Assembly (NCBI GenBank): GCA_002354005.1
Contig: DEKS01000148.1
Span: 1-40,661 of the forward strand
Origin: Bacteroidales bacterium UBA2716
GTDB lineage: Bacteria > Bacteroidota > Bacteroidia > Bacteroidales > UBA932
Length of the DNA: 40,661 nt
Reading direction: 5' to 3'
Translations under genes and position numbers: made by a program
The notes under the pieces: model-generated
Database searches by the model: none
Seen by the model: the letters and a program-made list of their open reading frames with translations, nothing else
What the model was told of the DNA's origin: nothing
Shown here: in pieces, positions 3,129 through 40,661 of the stretch
Position numbering within the stretch: the first letter of the stretch is position 1
Layout: each line of letters starts with the position of its first letter

Positions 3129-3154
3129 ATCTATAAACTTTTATATTCTATCAT

Positions 3155-3184
3155 GAGATACGCTCGCTTCGCTCGGTATGACAG
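3155..3184 (-). repeat. Single REP-like palindromic element (CGTC/TGTC-tagged family)
   Basis: Minus strand CTGTCATACCGAGCGAAGCGAGCGTATCTC resembles the widespread GTCAT..GAGCGAAGCGAG..ATCT intergenic repeat; lies in the 58-nt gap between the permease and adaptor genes. Confidence 0.55.
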
Positions 3185-3186
3185 GA

Positions 3187-22400: not shown

Positions 22401-22522
22401 GGTTCACCTTTGGCATCGGTCACCGTACCGGTAACGTCGATGGTCCGCTGGGCGAAGGCCTGCGTGCCCACGAGGAGCATCAGACCGGCAGCCAAAGCAG
22501 AACAAATGGATTTGAAGTGCAT
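19445..22522 (-). CDS. SusC/RagA-family TonB-dependent transporter
   Basis: Signal peptide, N-terminal extension domain (VTGTVTDAKGEPIIG), VVIGYGTQKK, plug VLKDASAAAIYGTRGAAGVILITTK, LKWETS, ENGDYLKLDNL, terminal beta strand TFTLGVNLTF. Confidence 0.96.
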   Translation of the reverse strand: MHFKSICSALAAGLMLLVGTQAFAQRTIDVTGTVTDAKGEPIIGVGVLVAGTRSGDITNEQGKYHLTGISANATITFSAIGYLQADEPVQGRTVINQTLQEDFLSLEDAVVIGYGTQKKGDITSAVANVKSEDFLAGNIGDAAQLVKGKVAGLNVTKGNGDPNSTSTIMLRGVNSLMGGYTPLVLVDGIEGSLSTVAPEAIEEITVLKDASAAAIYGTRGAAGVILITTKAGKVGERFNISYNGYASVSTFSKRVKFMDADFMHMLEDLGTDSSGQTYLAKYSPFADLGYNTDWLSEVSHPGFAHNHNINLEGGTKHMAYSANVTYKDNQGVIKGSYSQDLRAQVDLTQYLFNDILKINVNMLKTLSKSDNQDSWTIYHQAVIRNPTAPIYVDNDPTQDYYEQTAPLYYYNPIPYNKEHTGDYRIETTRLTGNITVEPIAGWKTNLQLSTRRNNSVNEYYNTAKYQGNRWGGINGSAGKSQGDFTQNLLELTTQYDRQLGKHHISGMLGYSWMRSTSSSFGASNSEFPTDAYLYNALEAGRLAELVESGEGENKTYTLKTYGGVSSHKEEATLIGFFGRFTYNFDNRFNVLATLRYEGCSKFAANNKWGLFPAVSAGWTLSNEDWLKDVRWLDNLKIRAGYGKTGVIPSASYMSLLLYDYDTSYGNYITPDGVWRPSLTPIQNENKNLKWETSHEVNVGVDFGFFDGRLYGSLDVYHKRTVDLLWDYSVPVPPNLYNSTTANVGTMSNTGVELMVGGTPVRTRNFEWNTTLTVSHNKNRLESLSNDLYQTEDYLDGAWTEEPTSMVLQRTYVGGALGDFYMLKSTGLSTSRSAKGMWMIEDPETGESTMFVDGMRSYDSRYRQYLGSGVPAVNFGWSNTFRYRGFDLTLAFSSALGFKIFNCQRMFYENLNIGLNRYQSAVEPVYGGVLSSSQQPVAVSYYLENGDYLKLDNLNFGYTFKTDNVKYLDRARIFFSGENVFCITGYKGIDPEMSSGDRFGFGVDYRNKYPTIRTFTLGVNLTFGNK

Positions 22523-25653: not shown

Positions 25654-28071
25654 ATGTCCAACCATTTTATCGCCGTTTTGGCCGGCCTGACAGCCGTTGT
25701 TTCTGTCCAGGCCCAACCCGTCCCGGAAGCCGGTTATCCCATCAACCCCGTTCCGTTTACCAGTGTAAAAATTGAGCAGAACTCCTTCTGGGGGCAGCGC
25801 CTCCGGGCCTCCCGTGAGGTCACCATCCCGCTGGCCTTCTCCAAGTGCGAGAGCGAGGGCCGCTATGAGAACTTCGTGAAGGCGGAAAAGCAAATGCACT
25901 CCCCGGTGAACCTGGGGTATGAGGTAAAAGGCTATTCCTTTGACGATACGGATGTGTACAAAACCATCGAAGGTGCCTCCTATGTGCTGCAAACCTATCC
26001 GGACAAAAAGCTGGAACATTACATTGACAGCATTCTGGTCATTGTGGCCGCTGCTCAGGAGCCGGACGGCTACCTGTACACTGCCCGCACTATGAATCCG
26101 GAGCACCCGCACGAGTGGGCCGGCGACCGCCGCTGGGTAAAGGACGAGGAACTGAGCCATGAGCTGTACAACCTGGGCCACATGGTAGACGCCGCCGTCG
26201 CCCATTACCAGGCCACCGGCAAGCGCAATTTCCTGGACATCGCCATCAAATATGCAGACTGCGTGGTGCGGGAGGTGGGCCCCCATGCCGGACAGGCCTG
26301 CGTGGTGCCCGGTCACCAGATTGCGGAAATGGCCCTGGCGCGCCTGTATCTGGCCACCGGGGAAAAGAAATACCTGGAAGAGGCCAAGTTTTTCCTGGAC
26401 GAGCGCGGCAAAACCGAGTATCGTGATGCGTACAACCAGACGCATCTGCCAGTGCTGGAGCAGGACGAGGCCGTAGGGCACGCCGTCCGTGCCGCCTATA
26501 TGTATGCCGGCATGGCGGACGTGGCCGCCCTCACCGGCGACGAGGGCTACATCCATGCCATTGACGCCATTTGGGAAAACATCGTTTCCAAAAAACTGTA
26601 CATTACCGGCGGCATCGGTGCTACCAATGCCGGCGAGGCCTTCGGCGAGAATTACCAGCTGCCCAACATGAGCGCCTATTGCGAGACCTGCGCCGCCATC
26701 GGCAATGTGTATGTGAACCACCGCATGTTCCTGCTGCACGGGGAGTCCAAGTATTATGACGTGCTGGAGCGCACCCTGTACAACGGCCTCATCAGCGGCG
26801 TTTCGCTGGAAGGCAACGGTTTCTTCTACCCCAACCCGCTGGAGAGCATCGGCCAGCATCAGCGCCAGGCCTGGTTCGGCTGCGCCTGCTGCCCGTCCAA
26901 CATTGCGCGTTTCATTCCTTCCGTCCCCGGTTACGTGTATGCCGTGAAGGACAACGCCCTGTACGTGAACCTGTTCATGCCCAATACCATGAAGCAGAAG
27001 GTGCTGGGCAAGGAAGTGGTGCTGTCGCAGCACACCGCCTATCCCTGGAACGGGGACATTGACATCACCGTGGACAAAACGGCTCTCCGCAAGGAGATGG
27101 CCCTCAAAATCCGCATCCCCGGCTGGGTGAAAGGGGAGGTGGTCCCCTCGGACCTGTATAAATATGCCGACGGCAAGCGCCTGGGTTACAGCGTGTGCCT
27201 GAACGGCGAAAAAGTGGAAAGCGAGCTGGTGGACGGCTACTTTGTGATTGCCCGCAAGTGGAAGAAGGGGGACAAGGTGAGCGTGCACTTTGACATGGAG
27301 CCGCGCGTGGTGAAGGCCCATCAGCTGGTGCAAGCGGACCAGGGACGCATTTCCATCGAGCGTGGTCCGCTTGTGTATTGTGCCGAATGGCCGGACAACG
27401 CGGGTTTCAGCGTACGCAGCATCCTCATGAACCAGGCTCCCAAGTTTGGCGTAAAGCATGCCGATGAACTTTTTGGCCTGGATAAAATCACCACCGGTGC
27501 ACAAACCCTGTCCTTCGGTGAAGATGGCCGCCTGGCCACCCAGGATGTGCTTCTCACCCTTATCCCGTACTATGCCTGGTGCCACCGCGGCAGCGGCGAA
27601 ATGGCCGTGTGGCTTCCGCAGTCCTTGCGTGCCACCAAGCCGTCCAAACCGGCTACGCTGGCCTCCGAGAGCGCAATAGACGCCTCCCATAAGGTCCGTT
27701 CCATCGGCGCCATCAACGACCAGCTTATTCCTGGAGATGAGTCATCCCCGTACTACCACTGGTGGCCCAAGAACGGTGGTACCGAGTGGATTACCTATAC
27801 CTTCAAGGCGCCCGCAACCATCTCGTCCAGCACCATTTACTGGTTCGACGACCAGCCCTGGGGCGGCTGCTCCGTGCCCAAGGCCTGGCGCGTCCTGTAC
27901 AAGAACGCGGCAGGGGAGTGGGTGCCCGTGGAAGGCGCCAGCGGCTATCCTACCGTAAAGGGCGCTGCCTGCGAAGTGAATTTTGCGCCGGTTACCACCA
28001 GCGCAGTAAAACTGGAAGTGGACCTGCCGGAGGAGCTGTCGGCCGGCCTGTATGAATGGGAAGTAAAATGA
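25654..28071 (+). CDS. GH127 beta-L-arabinofuranosidase (HypBA1-like), secreted, with C-terminal discoidin/CBM32-like domain
   Basis: Start moved to ATG 25654 (signal peptide MSNHFIAVLAGLTAVVSVQA; ORF-track start lies within the promoter region). FDDTDVYK, HELYNLGH, AVGHAVRA, AYCETCAAIGN, CACCPSN motifs. Confidence 0.92.
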   Translation: MSNHFIAVLAGLTAVVSVQAQPVPEAGYPINPVPFTSVKIEQNSFWGQRLRASREVTIPLAFSKCESEGRYENFVKAEKQMHSPVNLGYEVKGYSFDDTDVYKTIEGASYVLQTYPDKKLEHYIDSILVIVAAAQEPDGYLYTARTMNPEHPHEWAGDRRWVKDEELSHELYNLGHMVDAAVAHYQATGKRNFLDIAIKYADCVVREVGPHAGQACVVPGHQIAEMALARLYLATGEKKYLEEAKFFLDERGKTEYRDAYNQTHLPVLEQDEAVGHAVRAAYMYAGMADVAALTGDEGYIHAIDAIWENIVSKKLYITGGIGATNAGEAFGENYQLPNMSAYCETCAAIGNVYVNHRMFLLHGESKYYDVLERTLYNGLISGVSLEGNGFFYPNPLESIGQHQRQAWFGCACCPSNIARFIPSVPGYVYAVKDNALYVNLFMPNTMKQKVLGKEVVLSQHTAYPWNGDIDITVDKTALRKEMALKIRIPGWVKGEVVPSDLYKYADGKRLGYSVCLNGEKVESELVDGYFVIARKWKKGDKVSVHFDMEPRVVKAHQLVQADQGRISIERGPLVYCAEWPDNAGFSVRSILMNQAPKFGVKHADELFGLDKITTGAQTLSFGEDGRLATQDVLLTLIPYYAWCHRGSGEMAVWLPQSLRATKPSKPATLASESAIDASHKVRSIGAINDQLIPGDESSPYYHWWPKNGGTEWITYTFKAPATISSSTIYWFDDQPWGGCSVPKAWRVLYKNAAGEWVPVEGASGYPTVKGAACEVNFAPVTTSAVKLEVDLPEELSAGLYEWEVK

Positions 28072-30101
28072 GAAAAATTCTTGTAAGCACTGCGCTCGCG
28101 GCCCTTTGCCTGGCGGCGGGCGCCCAAACGCCTAAGAACGTACTCCGGATAGATGTGGATGCCCCCGGCATTCCCATCCAGCCCACCATGTACGGCATTT
28201 TCCTGGAGGATATCAATTTTGCGGCCGACGGCGGCCTGTATGCAGAGAAGATTGCAAACCGTTCCTTCGAGTACGACAACCCTCTTCAGGACTGGAAAAC
28301 CTTCGGGAAGGTGGAGGTCCTTACGGAAGGCGCACCGTTTGCCAACAATCCTCACTACGTACGCTTGAAAGCCCAGGCCCATCCTGCCATGCAGTGCGGC
28401 CTGCAGAACGAAGGCTGGTTTGGAATCGGCCTTGAAAAGGGGGCCGAATATAAACTGAGCTTCTGGGCCCGTACGGTAGGAAAGGCCAAAGAGGTGGGCC
28501 TGGCGGGCATTCTGTGCCAACCTGCCGGTCAGGTGGAAAACCAGAACCTGGCGCTGGCGGAAATCACCGTGAAAGGGAGTAAATGGACCAAGTATGAGGC
28601 TACCCTCACCGCTCCTGAAACCTTGGAGAAGGGTGCTTTCCGCTTGCTGCTGTGGGACGATAATCCCCAGGCGGCAGTGGACGTGGAACACATTTCCCTG
28701 TTCCCGGCAGAGACGTTCCACGGTGACGAAAACGGTCTCCGGAAGGACTTGGCACAGGCCCTGGCGGACCTCCATCCCGGCATCCTCCGCTTCCCCGGCG
28801 GCTGCATTGTGGAGGGAACCAACCTGGACAACCGGTATCAGTGGAAAAATACGGTGGGTCCGGTGGAAAACCGTCCCATCAACATTAACCGCTGGAACTA
28901 CGGCACCTTCGAGCGCATGTTCCCGGATTATTACCAAAGCGGCGGCCTGGGCTTCTATGAGTATTTCCGCCTGGCGGAGGAAATGGGTGCGGAGCCCGTT
29001 CCCATCGTGAGCTGCGGCATGGCCTGCCAGTTTCAGAATGACCCTGAGTGGAAGCCCAACTGCGCCATGGAGGACTTGCAGGGCTACATCCAGGACGCCC
29101 TGGACCTCATTGAATTCGCCAACGGATCCCCCAAGAGCAAATGGGGCAAGGTGCGCGCCCAGATGGGCCATCCGGCTCCTTTCAACCTCAAATACCTGGG
29201 CATTGGCAACGAGCAGTGGGGAGCGGAATTCCTGGAGCGCTTTGTCCCCTTCATGAAGGCTGTGCGCGAGAAATACCCTGACATAAAGATAGTGGGCACC
29301 TCAGGCCCTTATTCCGGCGGCGAATGGTTCGACGACCTCTGGAAAGAGATGCGCAAGCTTAACGTGGACCTGGTAGACGAGCACTATTACAGCTGGGAAG
29401 GCTTCTATGAGAAGAAGGCGGACCGCTATGACGACTATCCCCGCACCGGCCCCAAGGTGTTTGCCGGCGAATATGCCTGCCACGGCTCCGACGGCAAAAA
29501 GTTCAACCACTTCAACGCCGCCCTCCTGGAAGCCAGCTTTATGACGGGCCTGGAGCGCAACGCAGACGTGGTGGTGATGTCCAGCTACGCGCCCACCTTC
29601 GCCCACGTGGAGGGCTGGCAGTGGCGTCCGGACCTTATTTGGTTCGACAACCTCCGTGTCATGAAAACCTGTAGCTACTATGTGCAGCAGCTATACGCCA
29701 CCAATAAAGGCGACCGCGCCATCCCCATCGCGGTGGACGGCAAGCCCGTGGTGAATGCGAATGGCCTCAACGCTACCGCCGCCATGGACGATGCCACCGG
29801 CGACATCATTGTCAAGATGGCCAACGTGAGTCCGTACTCGCAGGTGGTGCGCTTTGTGCTCCCTGCGGGCGTGAAGGCGGCCGAAAGGACCACGCTGCAC
29901 AGCGAGAATCCGGTGGCGGAAAATACGCTGGAGGCCCCTGAGACCATTGTCCCGGAAACCAAGACACTGGATTTCACGCCGGTGGAGGACCCGGACAACG
30001 CCTGGCTCCTGGGCGTGCGCAAGCAGGAAGACGGAAGCATGGAATACAGTGAGCGGCTGGGCGGAAGAACCTTTGCCGTGTACAGATTTCACAGAAACTA
30101 A
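28068..30101 (+). CDS. GH51 alpha-L-arabinofuranosidase
   Basis: Signal peptide; YGIFLEDINFAADGGLYAE, LRFPGGC, GIGNEQWG, VDEHYY, VFAGEYA, MSSYAP; ATGA overlap with GH127. Confidence 0.93.
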   Translation: MRKILVSTALAALCLAAGAQTPKNVLRIDVDAPGIPIQPTMYGIFLEDINFAADGGLYAEKIANRSFEYDNPLQDWKTFGKVEVLTEGAPFANNPHYVRLKAQAHPAMQCGLQNEGWFGIGLEKGAEYKLSFWARTVGKAKEVGLAGILCQPAGQVENQNLALAEITVKGSKWTKYEATLTAPETLEKGAFRLLLWDDNPQAAVDVEHISLFPAETFHGDENGLRKDLAQALADLHPGILRFPGGCIVEGTNLDNRYQWKNTVGPVENRPININRWNYGTFERMFPDYYQSGGLGFYEYFRLAEEMGAEPVPIVSCGMACQFQNDPEWKPNCAMEDLQGYIQDALDLIEFANGSPKSKWGKVRAQMGHPAPFNLKYLGIGNEQWGAEFLERFVPFMKAVREKYPDIKIVGTSGPYSGGEWFDDLWKEMRKLNVDLVDEHYYSWEGFYEKKADRYDDYPRTGPKVFAGEYACHGSDGKKFNHFNAALLEASFMTGLERNADVVVMSSYAPTFAHVEGWQWRPDLIWFDNLRVMKTCSYYVQQLYATNKGDRAIPIAVDGKPVVNANGLNATAAMDDATGDIIVKMANVSPYSQVVRFVLPAGVKAAERTTLHSENPVAENTLEAPETIVPETKTLDFTPVEDPDNAWLLGVRKQEDGSMEYSERLGGRTFAVYRFHRN

Positions 30102-30104
30102 ACG

Positions 30105-31442
30105 ATGGAAATGAAGAAACTTGGATGGGGCCTGCTTGTGGTATTGGCACTGGCCGCCTGTAAAAAGGAAATCGGCCCCGGAGGAGAAAAACCCGGTCCG
30201 GAACAACAACCGGAGGAGGTGGTTATTGCTCCGCAAACCGCTATAGGGGAGATAATGATTGTTACCGATAACGGGGCGGCCGTGGACAGCAAGGATCCGG
30301 CCGACTATCGTCCTTGTACGGTGAAAGTGTTGGGCACCAGGTATGACGCCACCTATAATCTGGAAGCGCGGGGCGCTATCCGCGGACGTGGCAATTCCAC
30401 CTGGAACTGGTACCCCAAGAAGCCTTATCGCATCAAACTGGACGAGTCTGCCTCCGTGCTGGGCCTGCCCCAAAACCGCGACTGGGTGCTGCTGGCGGAC
30501 TACCGGGACGTGACGCACATGATGAACGCCACGGGCTTTTATCTGGCCAAAGAACTGGGCCTGCCCCATGCCAACCACATCCGCTATGTCAAACTCATCC
30601 TGAACGGACAGGACATGGGCCTGTATGCCCTTACGGAGCAGGTGGAGGAAGGCGGCAACCGCGTCAAACTGGATAAGGACGAAGGCATTCTGCTGGCCCT
30701 GGACATCAATGACGGCCCGGACGACGAGCCCCGTGCCACCAACAATTTCTGGAGTGAGGTATTCGAGATGGCCTGCGCCGTGAAATATCCGGACGACGCC
30801 ACCAAAGCCATCTCCAAGCAGGTGAAGGCCGCATTCGCTGAGCTGGAGCAGGCTATTGAGGACGAGGACTGGGAGGAAATCCAGGAGCTGCTGGACGTGG
30901 AGTCCATGATTCACTACATCCTTATCCAGGAAATTATCGGCAATGTGGAAATGGACAATTATCCCAGCATGCGCAGCGGCTTTATCCATCGGTATAATAG
31001 TGATGCCAAATGGGTGATGGGGCCCCTGTGGGACTGCGACGGCGGTTTCTCCTACAACTGGGGCGACATGTACGACTATTACGGCTGGGGACATACCTTC
31101 TTTGAGAATTACCGCTACCTGGTCTTTGGTTCGGATCCTTATAACCATTCCGGCGCATACGGCAGCACAGCATCGCCCTTCTTCTGCCGCCTGTTCGGCA
31201 TTCCCGAGTTTGTGGAAATGCTCCAAGCCCGCTGGAAGGAAACCCACAATGCCCTGCTGGAAGGCCTGCTGACGTATTTGGACGAGGTGGAGGAGCTGAT
31301 TGGCGAAGATGCCCAGGCGGACATGGAGCTCTGGGGCATCGACAATTACACGCACGAGGAAGAGTATAAAAAGTTGGTTACCTGGCTGGCCAACCGCTTC
31401 AATTACCTGGACGACGTTATCCGAAAATATCCCAAGTACTGA
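30105..31442 (+). CDS. CotH-family atypical kinase lipoprotein
   Basis: Lipobox ALAAC; IRGRGNSTW, KKPYRIKL, DWVLLA, GLYALTEQVE, MGPLWDCD motifs. Confidence 0.85.
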   Translation: MEMKKLGWGLLVVLALAACKKEIGPGGEKPGPEQQPEEVVIAPQTAIGEIMIVTDNGAAVDSKDPADYRPCTVKVLGTRYDATYNLEARGAIRGRGNSTWNWYPKKPYRIKLDESASVLGLPQNRDWVLLADYRDVTHMMNATGFYLAKELGLPHANHIRYVKLILNGQDMGLYALTEQVEEGGNRVKLDKDEGILLALDINDGPDDEPRATNNFWSEVFEMACAVKYPDDATKAISKQVKAAFAELEQAIEDEDWEEIQELLDVESMIHYILIQEIIGNVEMDNYPSMRSGFIHRYNSDAKWVMGPLWDCDGGFSYNWGDMYDYYGWGHTFFENYRYLVFGSDPYNHSGAYGSTASPFFCRLFGIPEFVEMLQARWKETHNALLEGLLTYLDEVEELIGEDAQADMELWGIDNYTHEEEYKKLVTWLANRFNYLDDVIRKYPKY

Positions 31443-32971
31443 TGAGAAAACTGTTATTCCTGTTTGCTGCACTTGCCGTTTCCCTGGTGGCCCTTTCCGG
31501 CTGCGGGGGAAGGGAGCATCCCTACACGATGGACTATACGGTGGCTGTAGATACCGTCGGTCATTATCTTCTTGTGGACCTGGATTTGTCCATGACACCC
31601 GGCTCAGGCCCCGTCACGCTGAACATGCCCCGCTGGACGCCGGGGTATTATGAGATGCTGGATTTTCCCAAGCACCTGTGCGACTTTTCCGTGGCGGATG
31701 CTGTCGGAACACCCTTGGCCTGGGAGAAGAGCGGGATGAACCGCTGGGTGGTCTCGCTTCCGGAAGACGGCCGCGTGAAGGTGTCGTACCGCATCTATGC
31801 CAACCGGAGGGATGTGGGATCCAGCCGCGTGGAAGGCGGAGTCGCCTTCGTTTCCCCGGCGGGCGTGTTCATGCATGTGGACGGCGACCTGCAGCATCCG
31901 GTGCGGGTGCGTTTCCGCCTCCCGGAAGGCTGGGAGAAAATTTCTTCCGGACTACTCCCCGTGGAGGGAACGGCAGATACTTTCCAGGCCGATGACTTCG
32001 ACCGCCTGTACGACAGCCCGTTCCTCCTGGGCAACTATTACACCTGTAATTTTGAGCACGAAGGACATCCTTACCATTTTGCCATTGAAACGCCCGAAGG
32101 TTTGGAAGAGAGCGGTTTCCGGGAGGATTTCTGCCGGATTGTGAGCGCAACTACGCGCCTGATGGGGGAGGTCCCCTATAATAACTACTGCCTCATCCAT
32201 ATGGGGGCTGGCGGCGGAGGCCTGGAACACTGGAACTCCCAGGCTTGCTATACGGACGGCACCTATCGGTTTGCGAACCGGGAACGGCAGGTCTCTTTCC
32301 TGGGCTTTGTTGCGCACGAGTACTTTCATCTGTACAACGTCAAGTGCATCCGTCCGGCAGAGCTGTGGCCCTTCAACTATGATACCGAGGCTGTTACGCC
32401 CATGCTCTGGGTAAGCGAGGGGCTCACTTGCTACTACGAGTTCCGTCTCATCCGCTCTTCCGGCGCGGTTACCCCGGAGGAGGCCCTGGCCCAGCTTTCC
32501 GGCTATTTCTCCCGCTATGCCCCATATGAGGGCCAGCGCCACATGAGCCTTCGTCAGAGCAGTTACGATATTTGGCTCAACTTCATGAACGAAGATGCCA
32601 ACGAGAAGGACGTCCGTATCAACTATTATTTCAAGGGCCCTGTAGTGGGGCTGCTCATGGACATTGACATCCGGCGCCACACTGCGCAGGCGAAGTCCCT
32701 GGACGATGTGATGCGCGGCCTCTATCAGCGCTATTACAAGGAACTTCAGCGCGGATTCACGGAAGAGGAGTTCTGGCAGGAGGTGGAAAAGACCTACGGC
32801 GGCCCCGTTCCGCATCTCCGCGCGCTTGCAAATACTACGGAAACAATTGATTATGAGGCGTATCTCAAGGACGCCGGCCTGTACGTGGATACGGCGTCCT
32901 GGTCCATCTGCCGGGTGGAGAGCCCTACGCCGGAACAGCGCGATTTTCTGGAACACTTGGATTTGATATAA
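31442..32971 (+). CDS. M61-family (glycyl aminopeptidase-like) metallopeptidase lipoprotein
   Basis: Lipobox LSGC; MPRWTPGYY, GGGLEH, AHEYFHLYNVK, LWVSEGLTCYY, NYYFKG; appears to lack the usual C-terminal PDZ. Confidence 0.88.
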   Translation: MRKLLFLFAALAVSLVALSGCGGREHPYTMDYTVAVDTVGHYLLVDLDLSMTPGSGPVTLNMPRWTPGYYEMLDFPKHLCDFSVADAVGTPLAWEKSGMNRWVVSLPEDGRVKVSYRIYANRRDVGSSRVEGGVAFVSPAGVFMHVDGDLQHPVRVRFRLPEGWEKISSGLLPVEGTADTFQADDFDRLYDSPFLLGNYYTCNFEHEGHPYHFAIETPEGLEESGFREDFCRIVSATTRLMGEVPYNNYCLIHMGAGGGGLEHWNSQACYTDGTYRFANRERQVSFLGFVAHEYFHLYNVKCIRPAELWPFNYDTEAVTPMLWVSEGLTCYYEFRLIRSSGAVTPEEALAQLSGYFSRYAPYEGQRHMSLRQSSYDIWLNFMNEDANEKDVRINYYFKGPVVGLLMDIDIRRHTAQAKSLDDVMRGLYQRYYKELQRGFTEEEFWQEVEKTYGGPVPHLRALANTTETIDYEAYLKDAGLYVDTASWSICRVESPTPEQRDFLEHLDLI

Positions 32972-32981: not shown

Positions 32982-34220
32982 ATGCGTATGAAACTGATAA
33001 CCAAACACATCCTGACGGTGGCAGCTGCTCTCTCCCTAAGCTGCACCGGCCTGTTTGCACAGGAAGCGCCGCAACCCCTTTCTGATTCCCTGTACCGGAG
33101 TCTCGCCGCCACCCCGCCCATGGGATGGAACAGCTGGAACAAATTCGGCTGCAACGTGAGCGAGCAGCTCATCCGGGACATGGCCGACGCCATGGCCGCT
33201 TCCGGCATGGCGGATGCGGGGTACCAGTACATCGTCATTGACGACTGCTGGCAGGTGAGTCGCGACGCGGATGGCAACATTGTCCCGGATCCGGAGCGTT
33301 TCCCTTCCGGCATGAAGGCCCTGGCCGATTATATCCATAGCCTGGGCCTCAAGTTCGGCGTGTATTCCTGCGCCGGTTCCCTGACCTGCCAGGCCCGTCC
33401 GGGCAGCAAGGGCCACCAGTTCCAGGATGCCCTGCAGTATGCCAAGTGGGGCGTGGACTACCTCAAGTACGACTGGTGCTACAATGACGGCCAGAACGCC
33501 AAGGCAGCCTACCAGACCATGTCGGAGGCCATCAAGGCTGCGGGCCGTCCCATCGTCCTGAGCATTTGCGAATGGGGCGAGAACAAGCCTTGGGAGTGGG
33601 GCGAGGGCATCGGCCACCTGTGGCGCGTAACGCCGGATATCCGTGCGTGCTATGACTGCACCTTCGACTGGGGCGGCGTGGGCGTGCTCCAGTGCATCGA
33701 CGCCGCTGCCGACCTGTACCCTTACGCTGGTCCCGGCCATTGGAACGACATGGAAATGCTGGAAGTGGGCAACGGCGAGCTCACCTATGACGAGAACGTG
33801 ACCCATTTCTCCATGTGGTGCATGATGGCGGCCCCGCTGATGAGCGGCAATGACCTCCGGGAAATGGACCACAAAACGCGCGAAATCCTCACCAACAAGG
33901 AAGTGATTGCAGTGAACCAGGACCCGCTGGGCCGGCAGGGCATCCGTTTCATGAAGATGGGTGACCAGGAAATCTGGGCCAAACCCCTCGCCGACGGTGA
34001 AATTGCCGTGTGCTTCATGAACCGCAGCAGCCTGCCCTGGAAATTGGATTACAACTGGACCGCGCAGACCATGTACTTTGCCAAGGACGTGAACCTCAAA
34101 AAGAACACTTATACGGTACGGGACCTCTGGAAGCACAAGTACATCGGCACCACCAAGGACCGCCTGAAAGCGGAAATTCCCAGCCACGGTGTCCTGATGG
34201 TCCGTCTCACCCAAATGTAA
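32982..34220 (+). CDS. GH27 alpha-galactosidase
   Basis: Signal peptide; TPPMGWNSWN, IDDCWQ (Asp-Asp, alpha-galactosidase type), YLKYDWC nucleophile, WRVTPDI acid/base, WNDMEMLEVGN. Confidence 0.93.
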   Translation: MRMKLITKHILTVAAALSLSCTGLFAQEAPQPLSDSLYRSLAATPPMGWNSWNKFGCNVSEQLIRDMADAMAASGMADAGYQYIVIDDCWQVSRDADGNIVPDPERFPSGMKALADYIHSLGLKFGVYSCAGSLTCQARPGSKGHQFQDALQYAKWGVDYLKYDWCYNDGQNAKAAYQTMSEAIKAAGRPIVLSICEWGENKPWEWGEGIGHLWRVTPDIRACYDCTFDWGGVGVLQCIDAAADLYPYAGPGHWNDMEMLEVGNGELTYDENVTHFSMWCMMAAPLMSGNDLREMDHKTREILTNKEVIAVNQDPLGRQGIRFMKMGDQEIWAKPLADGEIAVCFMNRSSLPWKLDYNWTAQTMYFAKDVNLKKNTYTVRDLWKHKYIGTTKDRLKAEIPSHGVLMVRLTQM

Positions 34221-34226: not shown

Positions 34227-36275
34227 ATGAGGAAGACATTTGCCACCCTTTTTGCAGGCTTGCTCACGCTGGGCATGAACGCGCAGGACTTTGATGCCGC
34301 CTACGCCAAGACGGAACCCGTGCTCCATTGGGGGGAGAAATTGTACAACGGCGCCGTCCGGCCCGTTTGGACGGGGGAGGACAGTTTTGTGTTCCAGACA
34401 CGCGAGACTACCGGCGAGGTGTGGTACCGGGTATGTGGTACGCAGAAAGTGGCCGTGGCCAAAGAGGTCTATGAGAATGCCCTCAAGAGCGACCGCAAGG
34501 ACTGGTACGATGCCTCCGACGAGAGCCAGTACGCGGTACGCAAGGAAGTGAAGGAACTGTCTCCGGACAGCACCCGGGTGGCCTTCGTCCGTGACAACAA
34601 TGTCTGGATAAGCCGGGCCGATGGTGCCCAGCCGGTGCAGCTGAGCTTTGACGGAACGGACGGAGAGGCCTACAGCGAACTGCTTTGGTCGCCCGACGGC
34701 ACCCGTCTGGCGGCACTGAAAAAGGAAGTGCTCAAGGAGCGCCAGATCCTGCTCCGTGTTTCGCGGCCGGACATCCAGGTGCAGCCCAAGTACCGCTGGC
34801 TGGACTATGCCAAGCCCGGCGACCGCCTGCCCCAGTGCACGCCGGCCCTCTTCGACACGGAAGCGCAGGTGCAGATTCCCCTGAACCGCAGCATCCCCCT
34901 GGACCAGTACTTCCTGGTGCTGGGCCAGTGGTCGGAAGACAGCGAATTCTTTACCTTCGAATACAACCAGCGCGGTCACCAGCGTTATGAACTGTGCGCC
35001 GTGGATGCCGCTACCGGCGAGGTGCGCACCGTGACGCGCGAGCAGAGCGATACCTTTATCTATTACTATGACCTTTGGCGCTACCTGTTCCGTGACGGTA
35101 AACGCCTGCTCTGGATTTCCGAGCGCGACAACTGGCGCCACCTTTATATGATAGACACACGCACCGGCAAGGCGCGCCAGCTCACCAAGGGCGCGTGGAA
35201 CGTGCGGGAAATCCACCATGTGGACGAGGAGGGCGGTTTTGTGCTGGCCAATGCCAACGGCCTGGGAGCCGAAAAGGGAGAGGACCCGTATAACAAGCAT
35301 GTCATCCGCATTGACCTGGCTACCGGCAAGGTGACGGACCTTACGCCGGAGAATGCGCACCATGAGGCATCCTTCAACCCTTCCGCCTCGGTGTTTGTGG
35401 ACAATTACTCGCGTCCGGACCTGCCGTATACGTCCGTGCTTCGCAGCGCCAGGGACGGCAGCGTGCTTTTGGAAATCCAGCGGGAGGACATATCGGCCCT
35501 CCTGAAAGAAGGCTTTACCCTGCCGGAGGTGTTTGTGGCCAAGGGACGTGACGGCGTCACGGACATCTGGGGCACCATCTGGCGGCCCTCGCACTTCAAG
35601 GCGGGGAAGAAATACCCGGTGGTGGAATACATCTATGCCGGTCCGCACGACTCCCATGTGGACAAGAACTTCATGAATTATCCGCCCCGCTTCATGCGCC
35701 TGACGCAGCTGGGCTTCATTGTGGTGTGCATCGACGGCATGGGTACCGACAATCGTTCCAAGCAGTTCCAGGACGTGGCTTGGCGCAATCTCAAGGACGC
35801 CGGCTTTCCGGACCGTATCCTGTGGATGCAGGCGGCCGCCGCCAAATATAAGTACATGGACCTGTCCAATGTGGGCATCTACGGTTATTCCGCCGGCGGC
35901 CAGAATACCCTGGCGGCCCTGCTGTTCCATCCGGAGTTCTACAAGGTGGGCGTGGCCCTGTGCGGCTGCCACGACAACCGTATGGACAAAATCTGGTGGA
36001 ACGAGCAGTGGATGGGCTACCCCGTGGGCCCTTGGTACGGCGAAAATTCCAATGTGGACAATGCCTGGCGCCTGGAGGGTAAACTCTTCATTATCAACGG
36101 AGAGGTGGATGACAACGTGGACCCTGCTTCCTCGCTGCAGGTGGTGTCGGAACTTGTTAAACACAACAAGGACTTCGAGCAGCTCTATCTGCCCGGCTTT
36201 TCCCACAATTTGAGCGCTCCCTGGGTGACGCGCCGCGTATTTGAATTCTTCTATAGAAATTGTAAAACAAAATAA
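34227..36275 (+). CDS. S9 family serine peptidase with DPP-IV-type beta-propeller
   Basis: Signal peptide; propeller (LSPDSTRVAFVRDNNVW, WSPDG, GAWNVREI); YAGPH, GYSAGG nucleophile, DDNV, terminal His. Confidence 0.9.
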   Translation: MRKTFATLFAGLLTLGMNAQDFDAAYAKTEPVLHWGEKLYNGAVRPVWTGEDSFVFQTRETTGEVWYRVCGTQKVAVAKEVYENALKSDRKDWYDASDESQYAVRKEVKELSPDSTRVAFVRDNNVWISRADGAQPVQLSFDGTDGEAYSELLWSPDGTRLAALKKEVLKERQILLRVSRPDIQVQPKYRWLDYAKPGDRLPQCTPALFDTEAQVQIPLNRSIPLDQYFLVLGQWSEDSEFFTFEYNQRGHQRYELCAVDAATGEVRTVTREQSDTFIYYYDLWRYLFRDGKRLLWISERDNWRHLYMIDTRTGKARQLTKGAWNVREIHHVDEEGGFVLANANGLGAEKGEDPYNKHVIRIDLATGKVTDLTPENAHHEASFNPSASVFVDNYSRPDLPYTSVLRSARDGSVLLEIQREDISALLKEGFTLPEVFVAKGRDGVTDIWGTIWRPSHFKAGKKYPVVEYIYAGPHDSHVDKNFMNYPPRFMRLTQLGFIVVCIDGMGTDNRSKQFQDVAWRNLKDAGFPDRILWMQAAAAKYKYMDLSNVGIYGYSAGGQNTLAALLFHPEFYKVGVALCGCHDNRMDKIWWNEQWMGYPVGPWYGENSNVDNAWRLEGKLFIINGEVDDNVDPASSLQVVSELVKHNKDFEQLYLPGFSHNLSAPWVTRRVFEFFYRNCKTK

Positions 36276-36287
36276 TAACACAAAACC

Positions 36288-37913
36288 ATGAACAACGCAA
36301 TCGTCAATTTCCCGGTGCCGGCCAACGAGCCGGTGAAGGCTTATCTGGAAGGTTCTCCGGAGCGTGTGGCCCTGGACGCCGAGCTCAAACGCCAATACAA
36401 CACGGTGGTGGACATCCCCATCATCATCGGCGGCAAGGAAATCCGCACCGGAAATACCGGCAAGGTGGTTTGCCCGCATGACCACAAACACGTGCTGGCC
36501 ACCTTCCACAAAGTTGGGGAGAAGGAAGTGCAAATGGCCGTGGAGGCTGCCATGGAGGCCCACAAGATTTGGAGCGAGACTCCCTGGACCACCCGCGCCG
36601 CCATCGTCCTCAAAATGGCGGAACTGCTCGCTACCAAGTATCGTCCCATCCTCAATGCCGCCTGCATGCTGGGCCAGAGCAAGAATATCTATCAGGCGGA
36701 GATTGACAGCGCCTGCGAGACCATCGACTTCTTCCGCTACAACGTGCACTTCGCCTCCAAGATTTACGGCATGCAGCCCAAGAACGGCGCCGGCAACATC
36801 AACCATACGGAGTACCGTCCCCTGGAAGGCTTCATCCTTGCGGTTACTCCCTTCAACTTCACATCCATCGCCTCCAACCTGTGCATGACGCCGGTCCTGA
36901 TGGGCAACGTGGCCCTGTGGAAGCCTTCCACCACTTCTACGCTCTCCAACTACTATCTTATGCAGCTGTACAAGGAAGCCGGCCTGCCGGACGGCGTCAT
37001 CAACTTCCTGCCGGGCAGCGGCGCCCTCATCGGCAAGGTGGCTACTTCTTCCAAGTGGTTCGCCGGCATTCACTTCACCGGCTCCACCGGCACCTTCAAC
37101 AGCCTGTGGCGTCAGGCTGGCGAAAACCTGGGCAATTACGTGAGCTATCCCCGCCTGGTTGGTGAAACCGGCGGCAAGGACTTCATCTTTGTGCATCCTT
37201 CCGCAGATGCCAAGGCCGTGGCAACGGCTGCATTCTGCGGTGCCTACGAATTCCAGGGCCAGAAGTGCTCCGCAGCTTCCCGCATGTACGTGCCCAAGAG
37301 CCTGTGGCCGGAAGTGCTGGGCATCATGAAGCAGTATGCCTCGGAGGTGAAGATGGGCGATGTGATGGACCACGGCAACTTCATCAACGCCGTCATCGAC
37401 GAAGCCTCCTGGGACAATATCGACAGCTATATTTCCTATGCGGAGAAGGCCTCCGACGCCAAAGTGGTGATGGGCGGAGGACGCGACAAGAGCGTAGGCT
37501 ATTTTGTGGAACCCACCATCATCGAAACCACCAACCCGCACTTCAAGAGCATGGAAGAGGAAATCTTCGGTCCCGTGCTCACCGTGTATCCCTATGACGA
37601 TGACAAGGTGGACGAGGCTGTGAAACTGTGCGATGAGACTTCCCCGTACGGCCTCACCGGTTCCGTCTTTGCCAAGGACCGCCTGGCCGCGGAGAAGATT
37701 ACCCACGACCTCCGCTATGCCGCCGGCAACTTCTACATCAACGACAAACCCACCGGAGCCGTTGTGGGCAATCAGCCGTTCGGCGGCGCCCGCGCTTCCG
37801 GTACCAACGACAAGGCCGGCGGTGAGTTCAACCTCATCCGTTGGGTCATCCCCAGAGTCATCAAGGAAACCCTGGTGAGCCCTACCGACTACCGTTACAC
37901 CTACATGAAGTAA
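36288..37913 (+). CDS. pruA: L-glutamate gamma-semialdehyde (P5C) dehydrogenase
   Basis: PANEPV, QAEIDSACETIDF, YRPLEGF..TPFNF, FTGST, ETGGKDF, FQGQKCSA, EEIFGP, INDKPTGAVV.QPFGGARASGTNDKAG. Confidence 0.95.
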   Translation: MNNAIVNFPVPANEPVKAYLEGSPERVALDAELKRQYNTVVDIPIIIGGKEIRTGNTGKVVCPHDHKHVLATFHKVGEKEVQMAVEAAMEAHKIWSETPWTTRAAIVLKMAELLATKYRPILNAACMLGQSKNIYQAEIDSACETIDFFRYNVHFASKIYGMQPKNGAGNINHTEYRPLEGFILAVTPFNFTSIASNLCMTPVLMGNVALWKPSTTSTLSNYYLMQLYKEAGLPDGVINFLPGSGALIGKVATSSKWFAGIHFTGSTGTFNSLWRQAGENLGNYVSYPRLVGETGGKDFIFVHPSADAKAVATAAFCGAYEFQGQKCSAASRMYVPKSLWPEVLGIMKQYASEVKMGDVMDHGNFINAVIDEASWDNIDSYISYAEKASDAKVVMGGGRDKSVGYFVEPTIIETTNPHFKSMEEEIFGPVLTVYPYDDDKVDEAVKLCDETSPYGLTGSVFAKDRLAAEKITHDLRYAAGNFYINDKPTGAVVGNQPFGGARASGTNDKAGGEFNLIRWVIPRVIKETLVSPTDYRYTYMK

Positions 37914-37916
37914 GTT

Positions 37917-38777
37917 ATGAAACGTCTTATCCTTCCCGTGGTGGTGCTTGCAGCCCTTATCCTGGGCTGCAAGGGCCCCCAGAAGGCGGTGGAAGTGGAC
38001 TTTGTCACCGCCTTGGGCATTCCGGAGTGTGTTATCACCACACCTCCGGATTCGCTGCATCTGGACCCTTGGTACAAAAAGTATGTGGACGTGAACGGCA
38101 TTCCGCTGTGCAGCTCCCGGCGTTGCCCGGACAGCGCACTGGTAGCCGGTTACAACACCCTGTGGGCCATGACCTCCATGTTGTCGGATGACGTTATGGA
38201 CGCCCTCAGGAAGGCCGGTACCAGGGTTACCATGATGGGCCGGTACGAGGGCACCACGGATGTGCCGGAGCACGCTTATCTTGCGGCGGATACCACCCTC
38301 AACTGGGACTTGAGGGCCCGCGGCCTGGGCGGCGACCTGGAGTTCCCGCTCACCTCCTGCGCGGAGGAGAACGTGCTGGGCTACCAGATAGACAAGTACC
38401 ACGCGGAGGATATCCTCATTCACGAATTCGCCCACAGCATCCACCTGGTGGGCATTGTCCAGGTGGAGCCGGACATCAACGGGCGCCTGGAGGTGCTGCT
38501 GCAAAATGCCATCGACAAAGGGCTGTGGTGGAATACGTACCGTACCACGGACATTGCGGAGTACTTTGCGGAGGGCGTGCAGGACTGGTTCAACGTGAAT
38601 GCGGAGATGGACCATCCTGACGGCAAACACAACTACGTGAACACCCGCGAGGAACTCAAGGAACGGGACCCGGGCCTATGGCAGCTTCTCAGTGAGTATT
38701 TCCCCGCCACGGACCAGCAAATCTCCAAGCACAAGTACGTAAACCTTTGCACCAAAGCTAATAGTCGAACCCGATAA
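37917..38777 (+). CDS. Small HEXXH zinc-metallopeptidase-like lipoprotein (lethal-factor/PPEP- or M90-like zincin)
   Basis: Lipobox LILGC; WDLRARGLGG, ILIHEFAHSIH, EYFAEG third-ligand motif, ELKERDPGLWQLL. Confidence 0.7.
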   Translation: MKRLILPVVVLAALILGCKGPQKAVEVDFVTALGIPECVITTPPDSLHLDPWYKKYVDVNGIPLCSSRRCPDSALVAGYNTLWAMTSMLSDDVMDALRKAGTRVTMMGRYEGTTDVPEHAYLAADTTLNWDLRARGLGGDLEFPLTSCAEENVLGYQIDKYHAEDILIHEFAHSIHLVGIVQVEPDINGRLEVLLQNAIDKGLWWNTYRTTDIAEYFAEGVQDWFNVNAEMDHPDGKHNYVNTREELKERDPGLWQLLSEYFPATDQQISKHKYVNLCTKANSRTR

Positions 38778-40171
38778 TGTTCAGTAAAGAAACCTATATC
38801 TCCCGCCGTGCGGCCCTCCGTGAAAAAGTGGGCAGCGGCATCCTCCTGTTCCTGGGAAACAACCAGGTAGGCATGAATTACGAAGGCAACGAGTACGACT
38901 TCCGTCAGGACAGTTCCTTCCTCTATTTCTGGGGCCTGGACTACGCCGGGCTCTCGGCTGTCATCGACGCAGATTCCGGTGAGGAAATCATCTTTGGCGA
39001 CGAGCTCACCATTGACGATATTGTCTGGACTGGCACCATGCCGTCCCTCTCGGACAATGCCAAACTGGTGGGTGTGGAGAAAACCCTTCCGGTGAAAGAC
39101 CTGAAGGAGTACCTTCGCAAGGCCATGCACCAGGGCCGGAACGTGCGCTTCCTGCCGCCGTACCGTGGAGACCATTACCTCCGCCTGATGGACCTGCTTG
39201 GCATTCTGCCGGAGGTGCAAACTGTCAGGGCGGACGAACCTCTCATCAAGGCTATTGTGGATATGCGTATCCACAAGACGGCGGAAGAGATTGCCGTGAT
39301 TGAGGATGCGGTGGACGTGAGCACCCTGATGCATCTGGAGGCGTACCGCCGCGTGCGTCCCGGCGTTCATGAGGCCCAGGTTGCCTCTTCTGTCCTCAAG
39401 ATTGCCACCAAGCGCCCCGGCGGCCGGCTTGCCTTCCCTACCATTGCCACCGTGGCGGGTCAAGTGCTTCACAATCACGGATTTATCCATACCCTCAAAG
39501 AGGGAGACATCTTCCTGTTGGATGCGGGCGCGGAGAATGCCTACCATTACTGCGGAGACCTTTCTTCCTCCATGCCCGTGAGCGAGCGTTTCACCCGTCG
39601 GCAGGAGGAGATTTACAACCTGCACCTGCGCAGCTTTGATGCGGCCGTGAAGGAACTCCGTCCCGGGAATCCGTACCGCAACGCCCACCTGGCCGCGGCG
39701 GAAACCATTGCGGAAGGCATGGTGGACCTGGGCCTCATGAAGGGAAATCCCCGCGACATTGCGGAGAGTGGCGCCTACGCCCTTGTATTCCCATGCGGCA
39801 CCGGCCACATGATGGGACTGGATGTCCACAATATGGAAAACCTCGGAGAGCAGTACGTGGGATACGCAAACGGGGAGAAGAAGAGCACCCAGTTCGGCTT
39901 CAAGTCCCTGCGCCTTGCACGCCCGCTGGAAAAGGGCTTTGTGTTTACGGTGGAGCCAGGCATCTACTTCATACCTGAACTGATAGACCTTTGGAAGGCC
40001 GAAGGCAGGTTCAAGGAATTCATCAATTATGACAAATTCGAGGCTTGGAAGGGTTTCGGAGGCCTCCGCAACGAGTTGGACTATGTAATCACGGAAACGG
40101 GCGCCCGGGTCCTTGGCAAACTCAAAAAGCCCATGACCCTGGAAGAAGTTTACAACGCAAAACATTCATGA
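38777..40171 (+). CDS. Aminopeptidase P / Xaa-Pro peptidase (M24B), cytoplasmic
   Basis: AMP_N (FRQDSSFLYFWG), LLDAG, GDLS, GHMMGLDVH, TVEPGIYF, GLRNE; no signal peptide. Confidence 0.93.
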   Translation: MFSKETYISRRAALREKVGSGILLFLGNNQVGMNYEGNEYDFRQDSSFLYFWGLDYAGLSAVIDADSGEEIIFGDELTIDDIVWTGTMPSLSDNAKLVGVEKTLPVKDLKEYLRKAMHQGRNVRFLPPYRGDHYLRLMDLLGILPEVQTVRADEPLIKAIVDMRIHKTAEEIAVIEDAVDVSTLMHLEAYRRVRPGVHEAQVASSVLKIATKRPGGRLAFPTIATVAGQVLHNHGFIHTLKEGDIFLLDAGAENAYHYCGDLSSSMPVSERFTRRQEEIYNLHLRSFDAAVKELRPGNPYRNAHLAAAETIAEGMVDLGLMKGNPRDIAESGAYALVFPCGTGHMMGLDVHNMENLGEQYVGYANGEKKSTQFGFKSLRLARPLEKGFVFTVEPGIYFIPELIDLWKAEGRFKEFINYDKFEAWKGFGGLRNELDYVITETGARVLGKLKKPMTLEEVYNAKHS

Positions 40172-40661
40172 AGAATTTTGGCATCAAATATCCGCAGAAC
40201 GACGGCGGAATGAACGCGCGCATCAAACGGCTGCGCCAGGAAAGTATTGAAACGCCCGCCACCCTCACCATTGAGCGGGCCCTGATAGAAACCGCTTTCT
40301 ACAAGGAGAATTATGGCAAGTACCCCACCCCGGTGCTGCGCGCCAAAAACTTCTATGAGATTTGCGCCAAGAAAACCATCTATATCGGCCCGGATGAGCT
40401 TATTGTAGGGGAGCGCGGCCCCAAGCCTAAGGCGGTGCCCACATTCCCGGAACTCACGTGCCACTCTGTGGAGGACCTCCATGTGCTGGACACCCGTGAA
40501 CTGCAGCAGTACAACATTTCGCAGGCCGACATTGACACCTACGAGCGCGAGGTCATCCCTTACTGGCAGGGCAAAACCCAGCGGGAGCGTATTTTCAACC
40601 ACGTTTCCAAGGAGTGGGAGGAAGCCTACCACGCCGGTGTGTTCACCGAGTTCATGGAGCA
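40168..40661 (+). CDS. hypD: trans-4-hydroxy-L-proline dehydratase (glycyl radical enzyme), N-terminal part; runs off the right edge
   Basis: Not in the ORF track. ATGA overlap at 40168; MKNFGIKYPQNDGGMNARIKRLRQES...IERAL...PVLRA...ELIVGERG...PTFPELTCHSVEDL...IPYW...EWEEAYHAGVFTEFME matches the HypD N-terminus as I recall it (PTYPEICCH, EWLAAYEAGMFTEFMEQ). The active-site Cys and Gly lie outside the window. Confidence 0.85.
   Translation, partial: MKNFGIKYPQNDGGMNARIKRLRQESIETPATLTIERALIETAFYKENYGKYPTPVLRAKNFYEICAKKTIYIGPDELIVGERGPKPKAVPTFPELTCHSVEDLHVLDTRELQQYNISQADIDTYEREVIPYWQGKTQRERIFNHVSKEWEEAYHAGVFTEFME

Follow-up and report, generated by a model that had tools for sequence, protein, structure and literature searches.

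We analysed the window, a stretch of 40,661 nt of contig DEKS01000148.1 from Bacteroidales bacterium UBA2716, which contains pruA and the 5' part of hypD. These genes encode a delta-1-pyrroline-5-carboxylate (P5C) dehydrogenase and a glycyl radical enzyme (GRE) that dehydrates hydroxyproline (Hyp). They lie at one end of a locus of ~35 kb that also comprises susC/susD, glycosidases and peptidases. The locus probably serves the utilisation of an extensin-type glycoprotein and ends in the conversion of Hyp via P5C to glutamate. Gene content, gene order and co-occurrence were observed, and from these we infer all substrate assignments and the flux.

A first-pass annotation of the window had proposed that HypD is paired here with P5C dehydrogenase rather than P5C reductase, and that Hyp goes to P5C and then to glutamate. 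The proposal is sound but already in print (Huang et al. 2018, PMC6219649). The value lies in the surrounding locus: its peptidases and glycosidases, on which the annotation did not remark, explain where the Hyp would come from.

The pathway we propose would begin at the cell surface, where DUF6055 gluzincins would cut glycosylated extensin into glycopeptides for uptake by SusC/SusD. The GH51 enzyme would strip terminal alpha-1,3-linked arabinofuranose (Araf), the GH127 and GH146 enzymes beta-linked Araf down to Hyp, and the GH27 enzyme alpha-galactose (alpha-Gal) from serine. A peptidase with the fold of Pro-Pro endopeptidases (PPEPs) would cut inside Hyp/Pro runs, and the dipeptidyl peptidase IV (DPP-IV)-like and M61 peptidases would trim the products to short peptides. 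A cytoplasmic M24B peptidase would liberate Hyp from Xaa-Hyp. HypD, activated by a radical-SAM enzyme encoded on another contig, would dehydrate Hyp to P5C, and PruA would oxidise P5C to glutamate with formation of NAD(P)H and no need for oxygen. One of two glutamate dehydrogenases could then pass glutamate to carbon and nitrogen metabolism.

A wider claim is made only tentatively, at a strength somewhat short of an even bet. Rumen-type Bacteroidales may possess a complete, undescribed route for eating extensin whole, composed of Svx-like DUF6055 glycopeptidases, a Hyp-Hyp-cutting Gram-negative PPEP-fold enzyme, GH146, prolidase, HypD and PruA. Within that route, GH146 would remove the last arabinose from Hyp, and HypD and PruA would oxidise the freed Hyp to glutamate.

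Layout of the locus

The genome under study (G000) is 91.21% complete. Its contig carrying the window (C31) runs 1087 nt past the window end, to position 41748; C122 is another of its contigs. Genomes of genus relatives are numbered with G and locus stretches read in relatives with L. The features of the window are as follows.

6621..9503, minus strand: GH146-type beta-L-arabinofuranosidase, predicted lipoprotein (PF07944/PF20736; closest solved chains 5OPJ, E 1e-47, and 8K7Y/8K7X)
9529..11682, minus strand: DUF6055 gluzincin lipoprotein a, BACON-DUF6055-DUF4859 (Pfam; HExxH at residue 275; Svx model E 3.8e-14, below cut-off)
11682..13511, minus strand: DUF6055 gluzincin lipoprotein b, BACON-DUF6055 (Pfam; HExxH at residue 289; no NCBIfam match at 1e-8)
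13508..15775, minus strand: DUF6055 gluzincin lipoprotein c, BACON-DUF6055-DUF4859 (Pfam; Svx model E 9.8e-22, 77 bits against a cut-off of 625; AlphaFold2 (AF2) model, mean confidence (pLDDT) 97.1)
15842..17437, minus strand: DUF4859 lipoprotein, candidate surface binding protein (PF16151, three stretches)
17485..19425, minus strand: SusD-like lipoprotein (PF07980, PF14322)
19445..22522, minus strand: SusC-like TonB-dependent transporter (TIGR04056, 724.5 bits, above cut-off)
22638..25517, minus strand: sensor-regulator with Reg_prop, Y_Y_Y and AraC HTH domains (Pfam; no kinase or receiver domain match)
25654..28071, plus strand: GH127 beta-L-arabinofuranosidase (likely ATG, open frame from 25534; PF07944/20736/20737; closest solved chain 6EX6, 1031.6 bits)
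28068..30101, plus strand: GH51 alpha-L-arabinofuranosidase (likely start, open frame from 28056; PF22848, PF06964; closest solved chain 6ZPS, MgGH51)
30105..31442, plus strand: CotH-family lipoprotein (PF08757)
31442..32971, plus strand: M61 aminopeptidase, predicted lipoprotein (PF17899, PF05299; HExxH at residue 292)
32982..34220, plus strand: GH27 alpha-galactosidase (PF16499; closest solved chains the alpha-galactosidases 6F4C, 3A5V and 1UAS)
34227..36275, plus strand: S9B DPP-IV-like dipeptidyl peptidase with signal peptide (PF00930, PF00326; GxSxG near residue 553)
36288..37913, plus strand: pruA, P5C/glutamate-semialdehyde dehydrogenase (TIGR01236, above cut-off; closest solved chains P5C dehydrogenases)
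37917..38777, plus strand: 286-aa HExxH zinc-peptidase lipoprotein with PPEP/ATLF fold (no Pfam or NCBIfam match; AF2 model)
38777..40171, plus strand: pepP, M24B Xaa-Pro peptidase of prolidase/aminopeptidase P type (PF00557, PF05195; no signal peptide seen)
40168..40661, plus strand: 5' part of hypD, continuing to the C31 end at 41748, with the last 18 codons at the C122 end (NF043068, 6VXC)

Ten genes (GH127, GH51, CotH, M61, GH27, DPP-IV-like, pruA, HExxH, pepP and hypD) form one run on the plus strand, with intergenic gaps of -4 to +12 nt from GH127 to hypD. The GH127/GH51 overlap is -4 when the likely ATG starts are taken. The opposite strand carries the sensor-regulator, susC, susD, the DUF4859 lipoprotein, the three DUF6055 lipoproteins and the GH146-type enzyme. 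With tandem susC/susD, glycosidases and a sensor-regulator, the locus has the make-up of a polysaccharide utilisation locus, and seven of the window's products are predicted peptidases.

The annotation had placed pruA and hypD in one coupled operon. Both genes are real and share a strand in this tightly spaced run, but they are not neighbours: the genes of the 286-aa HExxH lipoprotein (37917–38777) and the M24B Xaa-Pro peptidase (38777–40171) separate them. RNA-library contigs span the pruA-HExxH, HExxH-pepP and pepP-hypD junctions, although such bridging does not prove co-transcription. They also span GH127-GH51, CotH-M61, M61-GH27 and GH27-DPP, which likewise does not establish a single transcript. 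The regulator gene was nearly uncovered in four RNA runs; these consist of assembled contigs only, in which missing cover proves nothing and genes cannot be ranked by depth. Scanning for promoters and terminators was uninformative, with 12 against 7.0 ± 2.9 and 15 against 18.3 ± 4.7 in shuffles.

HypD, its activase and PruA

PruA is a member of the equivalog family TIGR01236 (750.2 bits, cut-off 613.6). Its E293 and C327, which we take to be catalytic, align with conserved motifs of 3V9J.

The best family for HypD is NF043068 and the best chain in the PDB is 6VXC. The protein of G000 is split into two pieces that score 178 and 545 bits, the cut-off of 1100 bits being set for the whole protein. 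In the nearest relative, HypD reaches 1134.5 bits, above this cut-off, and is identical at 499 of 525 aligned residues (95%). C31 ends at position 509 of the 784 positions of the HypD model, and the last 18 residues are encoded at the C122 end, where the following genes are those that follow hypD in the nearest relative. The ~0.8-kb gap between C31 and C122 would thus hold ~258 codons of hypD. At the window end itself, the scaffold has an artefact of 7 nt, made up of NN and a 5-nt duplication. A contig of DNA run X6 spans the edge minus those seven letters, so the hypD frame is intact and a frameshift at this point is ruled out.

We take F152 to be an active-site residue of HypD and Gly765 to be the number of its glycyl residue, both in Clostridioides difficile numbering. 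F152, H160, D278, S334, D339, F340, C434, E436 and Y450 are all present in G000, that is nine of the 11 residues checked; T645 and G765 fall in the assembly gap. The residues other than F152 are named in PMC7077986. Among 89 relative rows (near-full-length only, with the same genomes partly repeated), the nine residues and T645 are kept in all 89 and the glycyl Gly in 87, two rows being gapped there. Another GRE class, which the annotation had named as grounds for refuting its proposal, was ruled out, as was the Cys-Val-Thr sister branch of HypD: the motif is Cys-Ile-Glu, and HypD models score about twice as high as any other GRE model.

An activating enzyme had been predicted just beyond the window edge. 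The candidate is found instead on C122 (15193–14285, minus strand), ~5.6 kb past the inferred hypD stop, with four to five unrelated open reading frames (ORFs) between. Its best model is NF043069 (315.9 bits, below the cut-off of 425); it exceeds the cut-off of the general model TIGR02494 and is 66% identical to the activase adjoining hypD in G007. Judged by these sequences, G000 is predicted almost certainly to have HypD activity, and the prediction of PruA activity is equally firm.

Two genes of the major facilitator superfamily (MFS) follow the activase (C122:14231–11437; L218:3938–6732) and are candidate Hyp or peptide transporters. In eight relatives, MFS homologues stand at the head of the locus, and in two hypD-negative genomes they come after pruA. 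They also adjoin dxs, so the linkage may be positional.

Conservation of the cassette

The order pruA-(HExxH and/or M64-type)-pepP-hypD was found on one contig in 16 of the 24 other hypD-positive genomes of the genus, and split by contig ends in four more. The remaining four lack pruA: in two the contig begins within the cassette, one genome has a lone hypD with activase, and one resembles contamination. The last (G287:C64, L038) has a clostridial-like hypD with an internal stop on a 3-kb contig, in a genome with two rpoB copies. It is likely bin contamination, and G287 was excluded from the tree counts. In most genus relatives, susC, susD and DUF4859 or DUF6055 lipoproteins lie directly upstream of the cassette. 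Near-identical DNA is present in goat and sheep gut runs.

The genus sample comprised 401 genomes, of which 25 were hypD-positive, 34 pruA-positive and 129 proC-positive. The pairing of pruA with hypD is above chance, because pruA was found in 21/25 hypD-positive but in only 13/376 hypD-negative genomes. Genome-level Fisher tests gave p 2e-22 for pruA and 3e-5 for proC, values that were rejected as overstated by kinship; independent pairs on a tree were used instead.

We read 78 further hypD loci, mostly titled uncultured Bacteroidales (Prevotellaceae, Bacteroidaceae, Muribaculaceae and one Candidatus Cryptobacteroides), some of them from this genus. Within 10 kb of hypD, pruA was present in 22/78, pepP in 39/78, the HExxH gene in 31/78 and the activase in 54/78. 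No pruA was seen near six HypD loci from more distant members of the order.

Variants of the layout were seen. In L044, an M64 peptidase replaces the HExxH gene between pruA and pepP. L133, titled Phocaeicola oris, carries pruA, HExxH, hypD and the activase gene in this order together with the GH146 orthologue; searches of it found neither proC nor DUF6055. The nearest relative (L061/L054) has an extra ~15 kb between the DPP gene and pruA (a second susC/susD, lipoproteins and DUF6055) that is missing in G000 (36275–36288). Among pruA-positive, hypD-negative genomes (L079, L083, L076, L086, L082), two have GH127 directly before pruA and may be remnants, two have a class III aminotransferase directly before pruA and one has an amidinotransferase-type gene.

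Peptidases

The 286-aa HExxH protein has 2034 database relatives, and H169, E170, H173, Y208 and E215 are invariant in 12 of 12 aligned homologues. A profile search of the PDB gave E-values of 0.03–1.3 only, and PF07737 is present on 18% of the members of its Atlas cluster. In the AF2 model (pLDDT 83.5), ranks 1–11 of the Foldseek search are PPEP-2 and PPEP-1 (best E 2e-3). By fold comparison, the predicted structure is closest to PPEP-2 (6FPC; Z 11.9, root-mean-square deviation 3.2, 170 aligned) and PPEP-3 (Z 11.3). The model thus combines an ATLF/PPEP fold with HExxH, Tyr and a third zinc-ligand Glu. The label 'alpha-glucosidase' on HExxH homologues was not accepted, as there is no glycosidase domain match and the fold is that of a zinc peptidase. 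The peptidase occurs as a tandem double domain with the zinc motif kept in both copies in L039 (7474–9105), L040, L046, L048 and L050.

Among solved chains, the M24B enzyme comes nearest to Xaa-Pro dipeptidases (E 2.7e-43). Enzymes of this type split Xaa-Hyp.

DUF6055 is described as uncharacterised in PMC11241649, the one paper found to mention it. Its domain model (pLDDT 97.1) predicts a zincin with a C-terminal beta-sandwich. The best fold match is to an M30 peptidase (Z 15.2), followed by M1 peptidases and a collagenase (9.7); M60 O-glycopeptidases appear in the Foldseek list. HExxH is present in 140/150 DUF6055 homologues. The Svx/AvrXca model NF040510 was the best NCBIfam match for 31 of 33 DUF6055 proteins tested, all far below cut-off. 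No Svx structure was among the matches of the fold searches, so the relation to Svx rests on the profile match. The HEXXHX(8,28)E motif of Svx has a spacer of 25 in DUF6055 protein a and of 34 in protein c. In one relative (L052:247–2733), GH27 is fused to a DUF6055 peptidase; an 829-aa GH27 match at L066:7978–10467 was noted alongside.

Glycosidases and co-occurrence with hypD

The PDB search with the GH146 enzyme returned 5OPJ, presumably BT0349, and 8K7X/8K7Y only, which do not place it in the XeHypBA1/Bll4HypBA1 subgroup or outside it. Two characterised GH146 enzymes cleave Araf-beta1-Hyp, and others act on arabinan oligomers or arabinogalactan protein (AGP) (PMC10850190). The glycan of extensin comprises Hyp-beta-Araf, beta-1,2 links, terminal alpha-1,3-Araf and Ser-alpha-Gal (PMC7933510). 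The locus encodes GH127 and GH146 (beta-Araf), GH51 (alpha-Araf) and GH27 (alpha-Gal), so its families match the linkage types of extensin. Assignment of GH127 as an aceric acid hydrolase was rejected (468.9 bits, cut-off 950; 5MQO last among the GH127 chains). GH127 was also seen in a locus type unlinked to hypD (L219, L220, L221), together with GH97 or GH2, a sensor-regulator and susC/susD, and with DUF6055 in L219 and L220.

The panel for counting co-occurrence comprised 80 of 400 genomes of the genus, 24 hypD-positive and 56 hypD-negative, the latter being controls taken by order of handle. Of these two groups, 22/24 and 4/56 have the GH146 orthologue, 20/24 and 3/56 DUF6055, and 20/24 and 2/56 the HExxH gene. 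Three of the four GH146-positive controls are 58–72% complete and also DUF6055-positive. In the five genomes whose GH146 neighbourhood was read (G096, G171, G276, G013 and G132), GH146 lies distant from hypD amid unrelated or housekeeping genes. As it co-occurs with hypD from such distant positions, simple hitchhiking does not explain the link. GH146 was also found in 36 of the 50 hypD-positive genomes that could be covered for the 78 further loci.

The rpoB tree contained G000 and 50 of the 54 matching panel genomes, 51 rows in all, from which G287 was then dropped. The hypD state changes eight times on it, which gave six independent pairs. GH146 tracks hypD in 5.7 of them (median p 0.031).

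The substrate: extensin and its alternatives

On this evidence, an extensin-type glycoprotein is rather probably the substrate. The chief alternative is that the cassette scavenges Hyp from unglycosylated Pro/Hyp peptides of collagen or gelatin type, or released by microbes, and that the glycosidases belong to a separate, adjoining arabinan or pectin locus. The cassette often stands without neighbouring glycosidases, and fold comparison of DUF6055 returned collagenases as well (7WSS, Z 9.7). Gly-Pro-Hyp peptides are fitting substrates for DPP-IV-like and prolidase-like enzymes. Moreover, one characterised GH146 enzyme, BT0349, acts on arabinan-derived oligomers (PMC10850190). We nevertheless consider scavenging unlikely. 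The GH146 orthologue tracks hypD across branches of the tree while being unlinked, the GH27-DUF6055 fusion ties a glycosidase to a peptidase, DUF6055 matches the Svx model, and the goat and sheep whose gut runs contain near-identical DNA are plant-eating hosts.

The target could also be a plant Hyp-rich glycoprotein (HRGP) other than extensin, mainly AGP core or gum-type glycans, with the Hyp-to-glutamate end unchanged. The chain closest to GH127, 6EX6, is presumably BT3674 from an AGP locus, and some GH27 enzymes are beta-L-arabinopyranosidases. The GH146 enzyme Bll3HypBA1 acts on AGP (PMC10850190). This is a doubtful alternative all the same: a scan of 23 window proteins found no galactan-backbone enzyme family, the solved chains nearest to GH27 are alpha-galactosidases, and docking suggests that Svx binds alpha-Gal-Ser over beta-Gal-Hyp (PMC9266454).

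Several observations weigh against an extensin-degrading locus as we propose it. Arabinan and AGPs likewise contain beta-Araf and alpha-Gal (PMC10850190). Only 7/24 relatives, plus G000, show physical linkage between the glycosidases and the pruA/hypD block, and GH127 homologues are common in hypD-negative genomes (23/56, vs 22 of 24 hypD-positive). GH146 does not favour pruA-linked loci (8/13 vs 28/37). The orthologue was found in 0 of 24 genomes of other families of the order, six of them HypD-bearing, so the link between GH146 and hypD holds for this HypD clade only. In the independent pairs, pruA tracks hypD in 4.9, and DUF6055 and HExxH in 4.8, each at only p 0.0625 with six pairs.

The same applies to the two peptidase assignments. 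The resemblance to PPEPs is confined to the fold, with 18% identity, and does not imply specificity; lethal-factor-type domains follow close behind (Z 9.4 or lower). Against the NF040510 cut-off of 625 bits, two window proteins reach 77.3 and 52.2 bits and the third has no match, the maximum among the 33 being 96.9. Svx cleaves carrot extensin, not mucin, and requires its C-terminal acyltransferase-like domain for this (PMC13164431). The matches of 31 homologues end near position 445–449 of 601 or earlier (one window protein reaches 515), so the domain needed for extensin cleavage is mostly uncovered. The sugar-site residues W136/G137 of Svx (PMC9266454 as reference) are replaced by S/T, and the N171 position is Asn or Gln. 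Finally, the two HypD residues in the assembly gap, T645 and G765, belong to this list.

Fate of P5C

The annotation had noted that the window holds neither proline dehydrogenase nor proC, and had named proline formation via a downstream proC as a point that could overturn its route. This observation extends to the contigs of the 91.21%-complete genome, in which no proC, proline dehydrogenase or class III aminotransferase (ornithine aminotransferase) was found. Searches with tblastn using two ProC proteins of the genus gave no match in G000, and proB gave weak partial matches only. Two Rossmann-fold matches that might have hidden a proC are prephenate dehydrogenase and ketopantoate reductase. 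As these searches came back empty, the only enzymes found to form and to consume P5C are HypD and PruA, respectively. The proline reductase model PF09338 had no match in G000, but it was silent in control genomes too. G000 carries two glutamate dehydrogenases and an araA fragment. The flow from Hyp to glutamate is likely the main flux in this genome.

The wording 'rather than P5C reductase' is too strong for the family. In the genus, proC was found in 18/25 hypD-positive and 111/376 hypD-negative genomes; in the former it lies either on a different contig from hypD or at least ~100 kb away in every case, and no genus-level hypD locus contains it. Of the 21 genomes with both hypD and pruA, 16 also have an unlinked proC, so flux could split, which counts against glutamate as the sole product. 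A cassette of proC-pepP-hypD with no pruA match was found in 7/108 hypD loci (L098, L101, L102, L105, L143, L149, L164). The HypD family thus solves the P5C step both ways.

That P5C goes mainly to proline via a proC elsewhere in the genome, with PruA clearing surplus P5C or serving an ornithine route, is improbable: the proC counts in the genus, the seven proC-pepP-hypD loci, proC in 4/5 other-family genomes tested and pruA directly after a class III aminotransferase in two hypD-negative genomes speak for it, but neither proC nor a class III aminotransferase was detected in G000, the tree gives no sign that proC tracks hypD (3.2 pairs along, 1.2 opposite, median p 0.625) and proC never lies in the hypD locus of this genus.

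Other genes of the window

The CotH-family lipoprotein (30105–31442) is kept in G088 and G372, and in L134 it lies directly 5' of hypD. MacAB/TolC-type exporter genes are located at 720–6415 (minus strand); homologues follow pruA-MFS-MFS in L077 and L078 and lie near hypD in L098 and L112.

Comparison with known systems

Huang et al. 2018 stated that proC rarely lies next to hypD in the genomes that carry the latter, and they took the presence of a dehydrogenase nearby as a hint that P5C is oxidised to glutamate. The same authors suggested that Bacteroidetes obtain Hyp from HRGPs, and named the enzymes releasing Hyp an open challenge (PMC6219649). The available text of a 2026 GRE review gives no route downstream of HypD (PMC13450708). 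Our literature search, which reached few subscription journals, returned no paper on a Bacteroidota locus that combines hypD with extensin or HRGP utilisation. The locus offers named, expressible candidates in one block for both questions of Huang et al., the fate of P5C and the gut enzymes that release Hyp. If our reading is true, a structural protein of the plant wall supplies nitrogen and carbon to a specialist subset of rumen Bacteroidales (25/401 genus genomes), DUF6055 and the 286-aa peptidase acquire functions, and the free Hyp pool that C. difficile also taps has an identifiable source.

The system of C. difficile (HypD, HypD-AE and P5C reductase; 6VXC/6VXE; PMC7077986, PMC6219649) shares the dehydratase, those active-site residues that the assembly covers and, judging by the candidate on C122, the activase type. 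Here, however, there is no adjacent proC but a P5C dehydrogenase, and hypD stands amid peptidases, glycosidases and SusC/SusD. Instead of serving as an electron acceptor, Hyp would be oxidised for its carbon and nitrogen. For Oscillibacter valericigenes, hypD with a nearby putative dehydrogenase led to the same proposed route from Hyp via P5C to glutamate (PMC6219649). In the present locus, the dehydrogenase is a clear TIGR01236 member, and candidate Hyp-releasing enzymes are encoded as well.

The HRGP systems of Bifidobacterium longum (HypBA1 GH127, HypBA2 GH121, HypAA GH43, Bll4HypBA1 GH146) and Xanthomonas euvesicatoria (XeHypBA1/2, XeHypAA) are described in PMC10850190 and PMC7933510. Common to them and to our locus are GH127 and GH146 beta-L-arabinofuranosidases and an alpha-L-arabinofuranosidase. 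According to these papers, those clusters harvest sugar; here, SusC/SusD, GH27, several peptidases and Hyp catabolism are added, and GH51 stands in place of GH43.

Svx/AvrXca of Pectobacterium (NF040510; PMC13164431, PMC9266454) shares distant homology in the peptidase domain, the HExxH...E zinc site and a proposed extensin substrate with the DUF6055 proteins. The latter are far below the cut-off, are lipoproteins with BACON and DUF4859 domains, do not clearly match the Svx C-terminal domain, and occur in a nutritional context in a gut commensal. PPEPs are described from two Firmicutes orders in PMC8610288. PPEP-1/2/3 (6FPC, 9G0J, 5A0P; ATLF-type fold) are the best fold matches of the 286-aa protein and share HExxH, the conserved Tyr and the Glu seven residues later. 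In contrast to them, it is a Bacteroidales lipoprotein of 16–19% identity, sometimes a tandem double domain, in a catabolic context. With the SusC/SusD loci of Bacteroidota, our locus has in common the tandem susC/susD, sensor-regulator, surface lipoproteins and glycosidases. It differs from them in being rich in peptidases (seven predicted in the window) and in ending in cytoplasmic amino-acid catabolism by a GRE.

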